Positions 9,386 through 43,399 of a stretch of 64,000 bases of DNA are shown here, in pieces (position 1 is the first letter of the stretch; each line of letters begins with the position of its first letter). The DNA is from an uncultured Thiotrichales bacterium (GTDB lineage: Bacteria > Pseudomonadota > Gammaproteobacteria > UWMA-0217), in NCBI GenBank assembly GCA_964614535.1, contig CAZTOZ010000023.1, forward strand, positions 81,552 to 145,551, read 5' to 3'. The notes under the pieces are model-generated. The model was given only the letters and a program-made list of their open reading frames with translations. It searched no databases and was not told the origin of the DNA. The position numbers were made by a program, and so were the translations under genes.

Positions 9386-9552
9386 TCACTACCCGACCCG
9401 GCCGGAAGCACGCTGGCTTCCGGCCCTGGCTGGTTTGCCGATGCGCCGAAATGCGCAGCGATGGCCGCCTCGACGGCGGCACCCGGAAACCGGATCGTCC
9501 AGCCGGCTGGCGCATTTACCGGCCGGCCGCCATCGAACCCTACGCAACGGGC

Positions 9553-10167
9553 TCATATGAACAGATTGACGTCCGCTTTCTGGGCGCGGGGCAGAAACGA
9601 CGCGGCGCCGACCCAGTCGCTCACTTCGTCGATGAAGTCCGCCTGATCCCAGCCGAACAGATCGACCGTCATCTGGCAGGCGATCATCTTCACGTCGGCC
9701 TCGATCGAGAGTTCGCGCAGCTGCTCGATGCTGGCGACCCCTTTTTTCTCGATCGTCTTTTTCATCATCGCGGTGGCCATCGACTCGAAGCCGGGGACGA
9801 TGGACATGATGGCGTTGGGTATCGACAGTTCCTTCTCCTGCAGCCACTGTGGCCCTTCGGGCATTTTCATCGGCATCGCCGGATTGCCGAGCGGGCTGAT
9901 CTTCAGATCGAGCTCCTTTTTCAGCAGCGCCAGGCCGTAGAAGGTGAAGAATATCGACACCTCCCAGCCCAGCGCCGCGGCGGTCGAGGCGAGAATGAAC
10001 GGCGGATAGGCCATGTCCAGCGTTCCCTTGGTGGCGATGATCGTCATCGATGGTTGGTGGGCCGCTGCCCGTTCGGCCATCTTCCGGTCGAATCTCTCGT
10101 CGAACCAGGCATCGAGGTCGTCGGGCAGGGTGGATTTGTCGGTCGAGGTGACTTCTGCGGTGCTCAT
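9553..10167 (-). CDS. DsrE/DsrF/DsrH-like (DsrE2-type) sulfur-relay family protein
   Basis: 205 aa from MSTAEV (GGAG ribosome-binding site). The motif TIIATKGTLD...FFTFYGLALL and a conserved Cys in KMIACQMTV fit the DrsE_2 family. Lies immediately downstream of a TusA gene. Confidence 0.55.
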   Translation of the reverse strand: MSTAEVTSTDKSTLPDDLDAWFDERFDRKMAERAAAHQPSMTIIATKGTLDMAYPPFILASTAAALGWEVSIFFTFYGLALLKKELDLKISPLGNPAMPMKMPEGPQWLQEKELSIPNAIMSIVPGFESMATAMMKKTIEKKGVASIEQLRELSIEADVKMIACQMTVDLFGWDQADFIDEVSDWVGAASFLPRAQKADVNLFI

Positions 10168-10411: not shown

Positions 10412-10587
10412 GGTGAATACCTCTCGGATGGGTTGGCTGACCGTACGGTCAAGCCGTGGGTGAAAAAAACCGGCCAGCCATGACCCGGCACGCCTGCTAT
10501 CGAACCGCAGGTGCAGGGGACTTGGACGACCGATCGGTCAAGCTGGTGGGTGCGGCGGGTGGGGTGGCTGGGCGACATCGTTCGGAT

Positions 10588-14691: not shown

Positions 14692-16173
14692 TCAGTAGGC
14701 CGTCTCGCCGGTGAACCCTTTGATGATGGTCATCAGAATGATCTTGATGTCGAGGAATATCGACCACTTGCGAATGTAGTCGATGTCGTAGATGACACGG
14801 CGCTGCATCTTGTCGAGGGAGTCGGTCTCGCCCCGCAGGCCGTTGACCTGGGCCCAGCCGGTGATCCCCGGCTTGATCTTGTGCCGCAGCATGTAGCCCC
14901 CGATGATGTTGCGGTAGGCCTCGTTGTGGGCCACCGCGTGCGGACGCGGGCCGACGATCGACATCGTCCCCATCAACACATTGATGAACTGGGGCAGTTC
15001 GTCCAGCGAGGTCCGGCGCAGATAGGCGCCGAAACGCGTCACCCGGGGATCGTCCTTCGTCACCTGACGGAAGTCGGTGCCATCCTCCAGCACCCGCATG
15101 GTGCGGAACTTCCACACCTTGATCGGCTTGCCGTCGAGCCCGTAGCGGGTCTGCTTGAAGATGATGGGGCCCTTGGAGGTGGCCTTGATGCCGATGGCGA
15201 TCAGAATCATCGGCACGGCGATGACGGTGAGGATCGCCAGCGAGAAGACGATGTCCTCGGTGCGCTTGACGACCCCTCGCAGGCCTGAGACCGGGTTTTC
15301 ATAGACGCTCACCGCCGGCACGCCATTGATGTCGACGATATGGGTGAAGTGGGTCTCCATCGAGTAGAAGTCGGGCACCACGTAGACCGCGACCATGGTG
15401 TTGGAGAGCATCCGGGTGATTTCCAGGATCTTGTGTTCCGCCCGCATCGGCATGGTGATGAAAACGACGTCGAACTCGCCTTTCTCTGCCGCTTTGACCA
15501 TGTCCTCGAAGGTGCCGTCCACCGGCAGCCCCTGTTTCAGGCGGCCCACGGCCTCCTGCTTGCGCCGGTTGATGATACGGCCGACGTGGTGGTAATCGAG
15601 GTGGGAGCGGTTGTCGTAGACGCCGACCAGCTCGTAGCCCACCCACGGGTTGTCCTCGATCTGGCTCTTGACGTGACGGCCGATCGGCCCGGCACCGGCG
15701 ATGGCGATGCGGCGGGTATTGATGCCGTGGGCCCGCAGAAAGCGCACCGACGCATTGAGCACGATCCGCACCAGCATGAACCCCAGGATCGAGATCACGA
15801 ACCAGGCCCCGGCCAGCACCCAGTCCAGGTGTTCGATACTCTGGTCGAAGATCAGGGCGATGATCAGCAGCGTCAGGCCGGTGAACATCCAGGCGAGGGT
15901 CGCCAATGCCACCATCCAGAAGCGGGACAGAAAGGTGTTGGTGATCTTCCAGTTCTGATAGACGTGGAAGAACTCGGCGTAGAACTGCATCAGCAGAATG
16001 GCCAGCAACGCGTAGAAGGCGTGGACGCGGATCCAGCCTTCCTCCGCGGTGCCGGTGATATTGACGGCGATGAACAGCGAGATGCCGATGGCGAGCGAGT
16101 CGAGCACCCGTGCCAGCAGCGACAGCGGATGTTGTGATGCCACGATCGGTGTTCTTGAGGAGAGCGTCTGCAT
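14692..16173 (-). CDS. undecaprenyl-phosphate sugar phosphotransferase (WbaP/WcaJ-type initiating glycosyltransferase)
   Basis: N-terminal TM helices, a CoA-binding-like middle domain, and the C-terminal bacterial sugar-transferase domain ([36 protein letters not shown]). Confidence 0.9.
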   Translation of the reverse strand: [493 protein letters not shown]

Positions 16174-16508
16174 GGTTGTTGGCGATCAGGGTTCCCGAGT
16201 CAGGCTCGTTGGTTGCTATTTTTGTTGTTGTTGTTCAGCCGGATGTTCCGATCCTTGGTCGACACGAACCATGTTGCGCTGGCAACGCACCGAGGCGTCT
16301 CACTCGCCAGAACCTGCCTGGTCGGTGTGCGGCATCTCCCTGTACCGTCTGCTCCTTGCGCGGCCGAATCGTTCGGGCCGGTCAGCGCTGCATTAGAGCA
16401 GAGCCCTACAAGCCGAGTATATAGGCTTGATCACAAAACCGGTCGGCCGCAGCCCCCAACCCACGGCGAAACCGCGTGGGGTGTGACGGGGTGAGGATTC
16501 CGGGTGGT

Positions 16509-16598
16509 GCCACGGGCGGCCAGCCCGGATATTGCACGAGAATACAGGATGTTGGGAGAATCTCGGCGAGACCGTTTGTTTGATTCGCCGAAAAGCAT
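16509..16598 (-). repeat. copy 1 of a ~90-nt conserved non-coding element (second copy at 42769-42860)
   Basis: About 80% identity over ~90 nt to the iscX-ndk intergenic region when read on the minus strand. Its translations differ in a non-synonymous-dominated way, so it is not protein-coding. Confidence 0.5.
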
Positions 16599-16634
16599 AG
16601 CGGTTTTTCCCAACGATCTTGTGAAAGATCCGGG

Positions 16635-17306
16635 CTAGGCGGAGGAGGGGTCGCCGAGAATGTCTTCCACTGGCTTGATGATGCCATGGCGCATCGCCAG
16701 TCGCACCAGCTCGGTGCTGTTGTGGACCTGCAGCTTGGCCTTGATCTGGGTGCTGTAGTTGGCGACTGTCTTGTAGCTGAGCGCCAGCTCCTTGGCCGCC
16801 TCGTGGGGCGACATCCCCTGTGCCAGCAGGCAGAAGATCTCGAACTCACGCGTCGTCAGACAGGCGAAGACGTCCTCGTCGCCGCGGGACTTGCGCAACG
16901 CCAGATTCTGCGCCAGCGCCTTGTCCAGGTAGGACTTGCCGGCGGCCACGGCGCGGACGCCATCGAGCATGACCTCGGGTGCGCAGTTCTTGGTGATATA
17001 GCCGAGCGCGCCGGCTTGCATCGCCTTCTCCACGAAGGCGATGTCGTCGTGCATGCTGAAGACCAGGATCGCGGCCGACTTGTCGCGTGCAATGATGCGG
17101 CGGATCGCCTCCATGCCGCCGATGCCCGGCAACGACAGATCCATGACGACGACGGTCGGATGCAGCTTGGCGAAATACTCGCAGGCCTGTTCGCCGCTTT
17201 CGGCCTCGGCCACCACCTCGATGTCGGGGGCGGTGTCGAGCAGGGAACGATACCCGGCGCGCACCACCGCATGATCGTCTACCAGCAGTACCTTGAGCTG
17301 TTTCAT
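16635..17306 (-). CDS. NarL/FixJ-family response regulator
   Basis: Receiver domain (KVLLVDDH...VVVMDLSLPG) plus LuxR HTH (LTTREFEIFCLLAQGMSPHEAAKELALSYKTVANY). Confidence 0.9.
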   Translation of the reverse strand: MKQLKVLLVDDHAVVRAGYRSLLDTAPDIEVVAEAESGEQACEYFAKLHPTVVVMDLSLPGIGGMEAIRRIIARDKSAAILVFSMHDDIAFVEKAMQAGALGYITKNCAPEVMLDGVRAVAAGKSYLDKALAQNLALRKSRGDEDVFACLTTREFEIFCLLAQGMSPHEAAKELALSYKTVANYSTQIKAKLQVHNSTELVRLAMRHGIIKPVEDILGDPSSA

Positions 17307-28766: not shown

Positions 28767-29119
28767 GCATCGCGCCGACCGCCGCCGATCCCGTCGCGCG
28801 GGAATGGTCCTCGGCGGATCGTGCTGTCCCGGTGAGGCCGTCGTTTCACCGGATCGCTGAAAACAAGACCCAATACATTGATTTGCCGTGCGCATGGTGA
28901 GAGGTTGGCAGGGCGCATGGCGTCCCCGACACCGCCATGCGGTCTCCAAGAAATCTCAGCGGTCATTTTGTTCGATTCACCCGCGACCCTGGCGACGCCC
29001 ATGCGTTGCGGCGGGACGGGCGAATCGACGCACCGCGCTGTTGTCGACCGATTGCGGTCACATGGGGCATTACGGGTCGGGCCATGCCGATAACCCGCTG
29101 AATCAACGGGCGTTCTCCG

Positions 29120-30091
29120 ATGAAGGAAAAACTCAGAGTCCGCACGGCCATCGTGCTGCGCACCACCACGGGCGTCTCCCTGGAGGCCGCGCGGCTGGCG
29201 CTGTTCAATGCCCTGCTGGCGCGTCGCTACGACCAGCCGCTGGTGCTGCGGATCGACAATCCGATGGACGACGATGGCGCCGGCACCGAGGCCATGCTGG
29301 ACGATCTGCGCTGGCTGGGGGTGGAGTGGACGGCGGGCCCCGATGTCGGTGGTGAACACGCCCCCTATCTCCGCTCACACCGCAGCAGCATCTACGCCGC
29401 TTTCTACGTCAAACTGATCGAGATGGGGCGCGCCTACCCCTGTTTCTGCACCGAGCGGGAACTGGAGGCCATGCGCCGTGCCCAGATCGCGTCCGGCATT
29501 ACGCCGCACTACGCCGGTGGCTGCAACCGGCTGAACCGGCAGGGGCGCCAGCACCGCATCGACAAGGGCCTGCCCGCCGTGCTGCGGTTCGCCATCCGCC
29601 GGGACTGGCGTTGCCACTACGACGACCTGCTGCTGGGACAGTACCACTGCGGCCCCGACGAGGTGGGGGATTTCGTGATCCGTGGACGCAACGGGGATGC
29701 GCAGCGGGTATTCACTACCACGGTGGACGATGCGCTGTTTGGTGTCACCCACCGCTTCCGTGGCATCGACGAACGCCAGCAGGTGCCGCAACAACTGGCG
29801 CTGGCCGATGCGCTGGGTTTGCCGTTGCCACTCTACGGACATCTGCCGCGGCTGCTGCCGGCGGCGTCGGAACAAGACGGCCTGCCCACGCTGACCTCGC
29901 TGCGCCGGGCGGGCTACCGACCGGAGGCGGTGCTGAACCATCTGGCCCGGCTCGGACACCGTTACGACAGCGAGCTGGTGCTGGACTTCGACGAGCTGGC
30001 CCGCCAGTTCCGCCTCTCCCGCCTCTGCGAGGAGCCGGTGTTCCACCGCCGTGAACGGCTCGACGCCTGGCAGGCGGCGGTCACCGCCTGA
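29120..30091 (+). CDS. glutamyl-tRNA synthetase catalytic-domain paralog (GluQRS-like) with degenerate HIGH and KMSKS motifs
   Basis: Aligns to the GluRS N-terminus (VLRIDNPMDD vs VLRIEDTDLE; CxC zinc knuckle YPCFCTERELEAM; THRFRGIDE vs THVIRGEDH). The HIGH motif is SLEA, and the KMSKS position reads LTSLRR. No anticodon-binding domain is present. Confidence 0.75.
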   Translation: MKEKLRVRTAIVLRTTTGVSLEAARLALFNALLARRYDQPLVLRIDNPMDDDGAGTEAMLDDLRWLGVEWTAGPDVGGEHAPYLRSHRSSIYAAFYVKLIEMGRAYPCFCTERELEAMRRAQIASGITPHYAGGCNRLNRQGRQHRIDKGLPAVLRFAIRRDWRCHYDDLLLGQYHCGPDEVGDFVIRGRNGDAQRVFTTTVDDALFGVTHRFRGIDERQQVPQQLALADALGLPLPLYGHLPRLLPAASEQDGLPTLTSLRRAGYRPEAVLNHLARLGHRYDSELVLDFDELARQFRLSRLCEEPVFHRRERLDAWQAAVTA

Positions 30092-42400: not shown

Positions 42401-42601
42401 ATGGGGCTGAAATGGACCGATACGCTCGATATCGCCATCGCGCTGGACGAGGCGCATCCGGACGTCGATCCGCTGACGGTCAACTTCGTCGATCTGCGCA
42501 ACTGGATCCTCGGACTCGACGACTTCGATGACGACCCGGAACACTCCGGCGAACGCATCCTCGAGGCGGTGCAGATGGCCTGGATCGACGAGCGGAGCTA
42601 A
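42401..42601 (+). CDS. iscX: Fe-S assembly protein IscX (YfhJ)
   Basis: 66 aa, acidic. MGLKWTDTLDIAIAL...FVDLRNWI matches the IscX family. Confidence 0.9.
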   Translation: MGLKWTDTLDIAIALDEAHPDVDPLTVNFVDLRNWILGLDDFDDDPEHSGERILEAVQMAWIDERS

Positions 42602-42768
42602 ACCGAATATTTCACGAAAACGGAGAAATCCGCGTAACACGCTGATTCATATTGCTTTTCCGGAGTATCGGTAAAGCGCGAGGTGGCACCAGCATCGCCA
42701 TGCGGTGATTGGAAGAACCTCAAGTGGCCCCTTCTTGTCCGATCCACCTGTAACGCATGGCGACGGCC

Positions 42769-42860
42769 ATGCTTTGCGGCGAATCGAACCAATGGCCTCG
42801 CCGAGATCCTCTCAATATCCTGCATTCTCATGAAACCATCGGGCCAACGCCCGTTTGCCT
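42769..42860 (+). repeat. copy 2 of the ~90-nt conserved non-coding element (pairs with 16509-16598)
   Basis: ATGCTTTGCGGCGAATCGAACCAATGGCCTCGCCGAGATCCTCTCAATATCCTGCATTCTCATG... It is followed by a sigma70-like promoter TTGCCT-N17-TAGAAT ~100 nt before ndk. Confidence 0.5.
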
Positions 42861-42967
42861 GTACCGCTCGCGGCCAGTAGAATCCGCTCACTTTCGAATA
42901 TCCTCGCAAACCCGCGGCCAAGGCGGGTTTGTGTTATTTTGTCCACCTGAAAATACTGGAGTTTTTC

Positions 42968-43399
42968 ATGGCGATCGAACGCACCATTTCCATCATCAAG
43001 CCCGACGCAGTAGCCAAGAACGTCATCGGCGACATCTACCGCCGTTTCGAGGAGGCCGGTCTCCGCATCGTCGCCGCCAAGATGAAGCATCTGAGCCGCC
43101 GCGAGGCGGAGGGCTTCTACGCCGTTCACAAGGAGCGTCCGTTCTTCAACGACCTGGTCGAGTTCATGACCTCCGGGCCGGTGATGATCCAGGTGCTCGA
43201 AGGCGAGAACGCCATTGCCAGAAACCGCGAGCTGATGGGGGCCACCAACCCGGCCGAGGCCGCGCCGGGCACGATTCGCGCCGATCACGCCTCCACCATC
43301 GACGAGAACGCCGTCCACGGTTCCGACGCGCCGGAGACGGCAGCCACCGAGATCGCCTATTTCTTTTCCGAGATAGAGATCTGCCCCCGCACGCGCTGA
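42968..43399 (+). CDS. ndk: nucleoside diphosphate kinase
   Basis: NDK motifs ([17 protein letters not shown]). GGAG ribosome-binding site 7 nt upstream. Confidence 0.95.

Follow-up and report, generated by a model that had tools for sequence, protein, structure and literature searches.

A probable family of MITE-type inverted-repeat elements in intergenic DNA of a sulfur-oxidizer-like gammaproteobacterium

INTRODUCTION

In reviews, the miniature inverted-repeat (MITE-type) elements of bacteria are described as small, palindromic sequences that lie in intergenic DNA or 3' of open reading frames (ORFs) and that form length variants by internal insertion (PMC10969869, PMC3184786, PMC2229807). 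For example, the Correia/NEMIS elements of Neisseria, QMITE of Coxiella, and IS5-derived elements are noncoding, measure 100 to 250 bp, carry terminal inverted repeats (TIRs), and often lie 3' of ORFs. They also occur as size variants that differ by indels, form long hairpins if transcribed, and differ in presence or absence between related genomes (PMC10969869, PMC3184786). The element described here resembles them in all of these respects. However, it has no sequence similarity to the described families in the collections searched, and its target duplication is putative.

The 127-bp imperfect palindromes of enterobacteria, ERIC/IRU, which also exist as longer variants with internal inserts, are a second point of comparison. 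Similarly, the short form of the present element is an imperfect palindrome of ~120 bp, lies between genes and is probably cotranscribed, and the longer copies carry an internal insert at a fixed position, whereas the host belongs to a different clade and the sequences are not homologous. ERIC copies that lie at the 3' ends of Yersinia genes alter mRNA decay, and an effect at the RNA level has also been reported for Correia elements in Neisseria (PMC10969869). For IS5, the target is YTAR, and insertion produces a 4-bp duplication (PMC5009759). REP units consist of a stem-loop with a 6- to 13-bp stem that adjoins a terminal GTAG or CGTC tag, and the G is conserved in >90% of the GTAG REPs (PMC3733652).

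Here, a repeated intergenic element was analyzed in the window, a 64-kb stretch of DNA from an uncultured sulfur-oxidizer-like gammaproteobacterium of hydrothermal or marine metagenomes. Judging from sequence comparison, the element probably represents a new family of nonautonomous MITE-type elements in this host.

RESULTS AND DISCUSSION

The repeated sequence is noncoding and larger than first recognized

An earlier note on this DNA had pointed out two similar stretches of ~90 nt, one at positions 16509 to 16598 on the minus strand (copy A) and one at 42769 to 42860 on the plus strand (copy B). Both are present, and they are ~79 to 80% identical. From ATGCTTT onward, 56 of 70 positions agree in an ungapped comparison, and BLAST aligned the copies with 79.3% identity over 82 nt (E = 1e-16). 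A degenerate 31-mer taken from the alignment matched the window twice, at A and at B, against 0.00 matches expected from 100 shuffles. The gene setting was also as reported. Copy A sits in a 461-nt spacer, downstream of a gene for a NarL/GacA-family response regulator (16635 to 17306, minus strand) and upstream of a gene for a WcaJ/WbaP-family priming (undecaprenyl-phosphate sugar) phosphotransferase (14692 to 16173, minus strand). Copy B lies between iscX (42401 to 42601) and ndk (42968 to 43399).

The claim that the element is noncoding was upheld by the substitution pattern, the indels, and the lack of a Pfam match. When the ATG frame was read, 2 of the first 10 differences between A and B were synonymous, and no frame on either strand was convincingly conserved between the two copies. 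Small ORFs overlapping the copies gave no Pfam match even at E ≤ 1. A coding remnant was considered for the forward +1 frame, in which 16 of 23 residues are identical; it was rejected given the indels against a third copy (copy C, described below), several of which are not multiples of three between B and C, the absence of a synonymous bias, and the Pfam result.

The homology of the 90-nt unit is real, but this unit is only the interior of a larger one, which measures 119 nt in A and 250 nt in B. Conversely, the last ~12 nt of the original alignment (CGCCCGT..GC) do not belong to the element; they are flanking sequence and are also found at an empty site in the closest relative. Two copies were not the full number either, since a third, more diverged one lies at ~28834 to 29076 on the plus strand. 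The similarity detected by BLAST ends at the ends of the element. A and B are not similar in their flanking genes and are therefore not part of a larger segmental duplication, a possibility that the earlier note had named as one that would undo its reading.

Copy A is an imperfect palindrome bounded by inverted repeats

Copy A is the complete short form, an imperfect palindrome of 119 nt (16520 to 16638, minus strand) when the outer tetranucleotides CTAG...CTGG are counted. Its first four bases contain the TAG (16637 to 16635) that terminates the response-regulator gene. The left TIR, CGCCTAGCCCGGATCTTTCACAAGA (16617 to 16641, minus strand), holds a motif common to the left ends of B and C and to the ends in two related species, L017 and L018. 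The right TIR, TCTCGTGCAATATCCGGGCTGGCCG (16517 to 16541, minus strand), is complementary to the left arm at 20 of 25 positions. These 25-nt repeats gave an inverted-repeat score of 15, compared with 6.9 ± 1.15 for shuffled sequence, and none of 500 shuffles reached it. CCGCC flanks A on both sides, which may be due to chance.

In the predicted structure, a 129-nt segment containing A forms one nested hairpin with an energy of -49.2 kcal/mol (z = -5.3, 0 of 200 shuffles). Folding of the complementary strand is just as good (z = -4.8), as expected of a palindrome in the DNA and not of a strand-specific RNA. The inverted repeat CGGCGA...TCGCCG, already recognized in the earlier note, was confirmed by the fold and by pattern search as CGGCGA-N19-TCGCCG (16560 to 16590, minus strand), and it forms the tip, or apical hairpin, of the long hairpin. 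An IHF site in the apical loop was considered and rejected because, by inspection, the site does not fit WATCAANNNNTTR. The direct ATCCT repeats that had been noted are present but trivial, with two in B and one in A.

Copies B and C are long forms of the same element

Copy B is a long form of 250 nt (42598 to 42847, plus strand), delimited by the breakpoints in the closest relative, by the terminal motifs, and by the 79% core identity to A. Within the iscX-ndk spacer, it begins at the iscX stop codon (CTAA) and stops 7 nt short of the ndk -35 box. The core and right terminus (42766 to 42847, plus strand) were part of the original alignment, minus its last ~12 nt. Upstream of the core lies an internal segment of ~125 nt (42641 to 42765, plus strand), recognized from the alignment of B with C, the inverted repeats, and the folds, which is present in B and C and missing from A. 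When this segment was left out of B, A and B could be aligned from end to end with a global score of 52, compared with -15.4 ± 4.8 in shuffles (z = 14), and with 90 of 127 positions identical (71%). In addition, the reverse complement of the right end of A matches the left end of B to a degree not reached in 1,000 shuffles.

Within B, the GCCATGC hairpin arms occur repeatedly in the internal segment, which also holds the left arm of a second internal palindrome, centered on GACG (42762 to 42765). This second palindrome is shared by B and C, and one of its arms is the beginning of the core. The hairpin GCATGGC-GACG-GCCATGC with its TTT (42752 to 42775) exists as described earlier, but it lies inside element B and not at its 5' edge. 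An attenuator formed by alternative pairing of the GCCATGC arms of B (1:2, 2:3, and 3:4) was considered and rejected, because B has a poor U-tract and C does not keep the arrangement. A partial internal duplication in B (42648 to 42670 against the start of the core) was not significant.

Copy C is a degenerate long form of ~243 nt (~28834 to 29076, plus strand), with secure homology to B over 28912 to 29064. It came to light when the entire B spacer was compared with the window by sensitive BLAST, with 64% identity over 157 nt, and its local alignment with B scored 38, compared with 10.6 ± 1.4 in shuffles (z ~20). It shares with B the core, weakly, plus ~90 nt upstream of the core. Its outer limits are inferred from the left-end motif TTTCACCGGATCGCTGAAAACAA (28843 to 28866) and a weak match at the right end. 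The left-end motif of A, CCG.AT.TTTCAC, recurs at the left ends of B (5 of 1,000 shuffles) and C (10 of 1,000 shuffles). The intergenic region that holds C is unrelated to those of A and B and precedes a truncated GltX/GluQRS-like gene (29120 to 30091).

From the sequence, A is the short form and B and C are long forms of one element. They differ in how well their ends pair. The termini of B are complementary at 13 of 21 positions, and no significant inverted repeat of its own was found in C by shuffle-tested inverted-repeat scoring. In neither B nor C do the termini close the structure, and their folds are no better than those of shuffled sequence (z = -2.4 and -1.2, respectively).

The iscX-ndk site is empty in related species

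Homologues of Ndk led to five related uncultured gammaproteobacteria, the nearest named genomes being Thiotrichales, Thiolapillus, and Sedimenticola MAGs. Their flanking genes have 85, 83, 77, 74, and 69% nucleotide identity to the window, and L016, at 85% in the flanks, is the closest. In four relatives, the iscX-ndk spacer measures 121, 543, 400, and 150 nt, compared with 366 nt in the window; in the fifth, ndk has a different upstream neighbor. In the 121-nt spacer of L016, the iscX stop codon runs straight into CCGCCGTTTGCC, and exactly the sequence at window positions 42604 to 42847 is missing. The breakpoints coincide with the terminal motifs of B. The element is likewise absent from the iscX-ndk site of L017, L018, and L020. 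This comparison of filled and empty sites is one between species (74 to 85% identity) and not within a population, and the empty site of L016 could in principle be the result of a precise deletion.

What all five relatives keep is the ndk-proximal part of the spacer, including the TTGCC(T)-17-TAGAAT promoter and the ribosome-binding site. In all relatives, the ndk leader also keeps an 11-bp hairpin unchanged, GCAAACCCGCG...CGCGGGTTTG, with a T-run after it. Upstream of the ndk -35 box, the sequence differs in each lineage. Since the promoter and the leader hairpin are kept in relatives without the element, both belong to ndk. Thus, the sigma-70 promoter TTGCCT-17-TAGAAT (42855 to 42883) that had been placed at the 3' side of B is real, but it lies outside the element.

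Downstream of the regulator, the relatives do not keep the synteny, so that no empty site could be defined for copy A. In L021 to L024, other genes are found downstream of the regulator and the element is absent from that region.

A shared regulatory site or an RNA gene explains the copies poorly

These comparisons bear on two of the options that had been offered for the repeat. As a shared cis-regulatory module, CGGCGA-N19-TCGCCG would be bound by a transcription factor, perhaps the adjacent NarL/GacA-family regulator, and would coregulate the priming transferase for exopolysaccharide (EPS), ndk, and the GltX-like gene. All three copies are oriented as their downstream gene, although one orientation in three of three copies would arise by chance with a probability of 1 in 4. 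Only 7 nt separate the end of B from the ndk -35 box, which puts the palindrome near positions -85 to -115 relative to the likely start site, and A adjoins a response-regulator gene. Ndk is functionally linked to polysaccharide synthesis in Pseudomonas, which also speaks for a module of this kind. However, the distances to the start codon vary widely (346 nt for A, 120 nt for B, and ~45 nt for C), and the palindrome is degraded in C. The relatives have the same ndk promoter and leader without the element, and L021 to L024 lack it downstream of the regulator. Moreover, 80% identity over 82 nt, together with shared termini 100 nt away, far exceeds what a binding site needs. A regulatory module is therefore considered very unlikely.

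More improbable still is that the copies are small RNA genes of one family, or a structured RNA leader, and are transcribed in the direction of the downstream genes. The intergenic location and the hairpins would suit an RNA, the strong fold of A would suit it as well, and a weak match to the Rfam family rnk_pseudo adjoins B. This match scored 22.7 bits, compared with a gathering score of 55, and falls in the conserved ndk leader, beyond the element. The other weak match of the scan, COG3860 (E = 0.31), is also outside the element. No Rfam family was found in the whole window at gathering thresholds, and nothing was found inside the element when both spacers were scanned at E ≤ 10. Neither A nor C is accompanied by a promoter or terminator of its own, and B contains neither. 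The opposite strand of A folds just as well, B and C have no global fold in common with A, the copies are separated by a 125-nt indel, and the orthologous sites in the relatives are without the element.

By the yardstick that the earlier note itself had proposed, namely conservation in related genomes and a transcription signal, both readings fall short: the element is not conserved in the relatives, and the copies hold no transcription signal of their own. Of its three suggestions, a small RNA, a cis-regulatory module, and a miniature repeat family, only the last is supported. It is supported by the TIRs, the short/long relation of A and B, the third copy, the empty site, and elements with the same termini in relatives.

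Similar termini bracket different interiors in other species

In L017, a 95-nt element (9464 to 9558) directly follows iscX and has a perfect 20-nt TIR, CTAGCCGGCATTTCTCACCA; its DNA fold has a z score of -6.8. A second, partial copy in L017, at 18119 and 8.6 kb away, begins with TTAACCCGGATTTCTCAC, which resembles the left end of A, CTAGCCCGGATCTTTCAC, and is identical at 50 of 52 positions over the first half. In L018, a solo end, GTAGCCCGCATTTCTCAC, was found at position 28. The ends of the elements can be summarized by the motif NTAR-CCCGGAT.TT.TCAC.

In global alignment, A and the L017 element scored above all 1,000 shuffles (z = 4.7 to 5.2), through their termini only. For the interiors, the comparison with the L017 element was significant neither for A (z = 0.9) nor for B (z = 2.4). 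The agreement between the window termini and those of L017 and L018 is modest, at 14 of 18 positions, and pairwise local tests were marginal (21 to 79 of 1,000 shuffles). Taken at the level of sequence, the termini of the window elements are probably homologous to those of L017 and L018. Conserved ends with variable interiors are expected if a trans-acting transposase recognizes the ends.

Similarity of this kind might also have arisen by nonmobile duplication, that is, by ectopic recombination or gene conversion between intergenic regions without transposition. The low visible copy number (in the 64-kb window), the age of the copies, and the lack of a transposase in view are compatible with such a process. 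The boundaries are nevertheless discrete and equal the inverted-repeat termini in A and the indel breakpoints in B, and the same termini bracket different interiors in other species. We regard nonmobile duplication as highly improbable, and a MITE-type family remains the preferred reading.

When ~180 kb was scanned with a position weight matrix (PWM) of the eight ends, no additional end scored above chance. A match at 10477 was rejected as a further terminus, as it is the tail of a terminator.

The outer tetranucleotides fit a possible YTAR target

The outermost four bases are CTAG at the left end of A, CTAA at the left end of B, CTAG at both ends of the L017 element, TTAA in the second L017 copy, and GTAG in L018. 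They recur as direct repeats at the other end: CTAG..CTGG in A (3 of 4 positions), CTAA..CCAA in B (3 of 4), and CTAG..CTAG in the L017 element (4 of 4). Thus, the outer tetranucleotides fit a 4-bp duplication of YTAR, as a lead only, because CTAG is self-complementary and could be part of the inverted repeat, and because the right-hand tetranucleotides of A and B each contain a mismatch. In having outer CTAG, CTAA, or TTAA sequences that recur in direct orientation at the other end (A, B, and L017), the elements resemble the IS5 family. Unlike in the IS5 family, neither an IS5-like transposase nor an IS5-like terminal sequence was found for them. A YTAR target, in which TAG and TAA are contained, would account for the position of A and B directly over the TAG and TAA stop codons, respectively, of the genes upstream.

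The same tetranucleotides could also be read as tags of a REPIN/BIME-like doublet, in which two inverted REP-type units form a hairpin pair mobilized by a tyrosine (HUH/Y1) RAYT/TIRYT transposase and not by a DDE enzyme. REPINs are inverted doublets with the tags outside, lie downstream of ORFs, and have conserved ends and a variable spacer (PMC3116915, PMC3733652), and the present elements are similar in each of these points. In particular, A and the L017 element are inverted doublets with long hairpins, tag-like tetranucleotides on the outside (HH), and arms ~60 to 70 bp apart. The left end of A by itself looks like a tag followed by a stem, a TCAC loop, and a stem, and one L018 end starts with GTAG. 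REPs lie mostly downstream of ORFs and are also found in related sulfur oxidizers (Thioalkalivibrio), and simple TIR families flank some of the RAYT-like genes (PMC3733652, PMC3116915).

The element termini, however, are not stem-loops. Only one of the eight is self-complementary (the left end of A, -5.3 kcal/mol), and the other seven do not fold alone. The tags are mostly CTAG, CTAA, or TTAA; GTAG is found at one of the eight ends, and the first tag base is C or T at six of the eight. There is also no sequence match to the REP, BIME, or ERIC sequences of Escherichia coli: blastn (word size 11) of A and B against 5,426 complete E. coli genomes returned no match, and hence no ERIC/REP/BIME homology. 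A REPIN-type origin, also in the variant of a TIR family mobilized by a Y1 transposase, is accordingly judged unlikely, and the MITE-type reading is retained.

The family is not found in the large collections searched

The exact core pattern was searched in 185,579 species genomes and in a metagenome collection, where it gave only chance matches in unrelated sequence and matches in the window's own population. For a family so diverged, an exact pattern is too strict, and the family is either narrow or too diverged for such a pattern. The terminus pattern had two chance matches in viral contigs, without partner ends, and the plasmid collection contained no match to the element. The window lies at the right end of its 145-kb contig, and no further copy was found in ~3 kb beyond the window. 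Related loci amounting to ~180 kb, like the 64-kb window itself, contained neither a transposase gene nor a longer element with these ends, and the element showed neither an outward promoter nor an IHF site. The core sequence TTCGATTCGCC resembled a T-arm, and a tRNA or tmRNA remnant or att site was therefore considered; ARAGORN found nothing.

A MITE-type family as the best explanation

The copies have five of the features by which MITEs are defined. Their lengths (119, 250, and ~243 nt) lie within the MITE size of about 50 to 500 bp, they are noncoding, and three of them are dispersed over unrelated intergenic regions within 64 kb. Sites filled in one genome are empty in others, and clear TIRs are found in A and in the L017 element. 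As the best reading, the element is an ordinary kind of accessory or junk DNA and not a new RNA gene or regulatory switch.

How such a family might have spread can be outlined as follows. A transposase supplied in trans would recognize the conserved termini, and insertion would take place into intergenic DNA, apparently at YTAR and possibly with duplication of YTAR. After insertion, the copies would decay by point mutation and internal indels, as suggested by the identities of 80% between A and B and 64% between B and C. The likeliest effect, if there is any, is a speculative one: by analogy with ERIC and Correia elements, a cotranscribed copy might fold as a long hairpin in the 3' untranslated region or in intercistronic RNA and alter mRNA processing or stability. 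The hairpin of A (-49 kcal/mol) starts at the upstream stop codon.

A bolder extension is that a clade-wide set of palindromic elements lands on stop codons through YTAR, so that a strong hairpin is systematically placed between cistrons or at the 3' end of the mRNA from the upstream gene, and that some copies, such as A between the two-component system and the EPS priming transferase and B between the isc operon and ndk, have been co-opted as RNA-stability or polarity elements or as sites bound by the adjacent NarL/GacA-type regulator. We consider this quite unlikely. If targeting of YTAR and stop codons and an effect of the 3' hairpin are both true, the elements would reshape operon boundaries; even so, no new principle would be involved.

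For annotation, the MITE-type reading keeps the repeat from being taken for a small RNA or a regulon motif, and it sets the element apart from the neighboring ndk promoter and leader hairpin, which are the truly conserved parts. It also adds an undescribed MITE-type family, with termini that appear to be conserved across several uncultured vent/marine sulfur-oxidizer-like species. In this clade, the iscX-ndk spacer is a hot spot of insertion.

The divergence of the copies (64 to 80% identity) suggests that they are old, and recent mobility is not indicated. By exact-protein look-ups, the window's own population was recovered in several marine/vent metagenomes, in which the spacers are ~100% identical. 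Strain-level variation inside A is confined to the apical loop.

Conservation of the ndk promoter and leader

For the region directly upstream of ndk, cross-species comparison revealed a conserved segment at positions 42855-42967 (plus strand) of the window. Its counterparts in related uncultured gammaproteobacteria lie at 9884-10000 in L016, 9925-10000 in L017, 9887-10000 in L018, 6960-7061 in L019, and 9877-10000 in L020, and the region is conserved even though nucleotide identity between these species is just 69 to 85%. The conserved region contains the ndk promoter, TTGCC(T)-17-TAGAAT, and an invariant 11-bp hairpin (GCAAACCCGCG..CGCGGGTTTG) with a variable loop, followed by a T-run. This hairpin and T-run are terminator-like and are placed between the promoter and the ribosome-binding site. 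The stem was identical in all species compared and, since it never varies, it provides no covariation evidence. The region looks like an attenuator-type leader or, alternatively, the terminator of the isc operon lying within the ndk leader. In Rfam, the leader matched the Pseudomonas rnk leader weakly, at a subthreshold 22.7 bits versus a gathering score of 55. The name rnk stands for "regulator of nucleoside diphosphate kinase."

Insertions in the iscX-ndk spacer

Within this clade, the spacer between iscX and ndk is a hot spot for insertions. In L018 (spacer at 9601-10000), a tRNA-Gly(CCC) gene occupies 9631-9704 on the opposite strand. In L017 (9458-10000), several perfect palindromes, e.g., CCTCTGAACAATTCATCCCTGAATTGTCAGAGG and GGAAAGTCTGATTTGATCAGACTTTCC, were found in addition to its 95-nt TIR element, and the ndk promoter was shifted approximately 400 nt upstream.

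Variation in and around copy A

Within the population of the window, the sole substitutions inside copy A of the inverted-repeat (probably MITE-type) element were two adjacent apical-loop bases (AATCAAAC versus AATCGCAC), at 16577-16578 (minus strand) in the window compared with 3726-3727 in L004 and with L005; L004 and L005 are two other samples of this population. Such loop-confined variation is consistent with the stems of copy A being constrained, or merely evolving more slowly. The pentamer CCGCC is present on either side of copy A (16638-16642 and 16515-16519, minus strand), and it occurs once in the L016 iscX-ndk site that is empty of copy B. With a genomic GC content of 64%, these flanks could be due to chance; otherwise they could be a target duplication alternative to the 4-bp YTAR model.

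An (AAC)n tract lies at 16218-16236 (minus strand) in the 461-nt spacer that also holds copy A. The start codon of the EPS priming phosphotransferase gene follows approximately 45 to 60 nt downstream of it. L004 and L005 differ from the window in the length of this tract by a single AAC unit, the only indel in the spacer. The tract could be slippage-prone and affect how the polysaccharide gene is expressed. In Rfam, the COG3860 RNA motif matched weakly at 16256-16319 on the plus strand (16.3 bits versus a gathering score of 42.5; E value, 0.31), in antisense orientation to the WcaJ-like gene's long leader. This match is probably a chance one.

Gene downstream of copy C

Downstream of copy C, the gene at 29120-30091 (plus strand) encodes a 323-amino-acid product whose match to glutamate-tRNA ligase is confined to the catalytic half. 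It scores below the curated cutoffs for both GltX (190 versus 290 bits) and GluQRS (118 versus 250 bits) and is therefore a divergent GluQRS-like paralogue.
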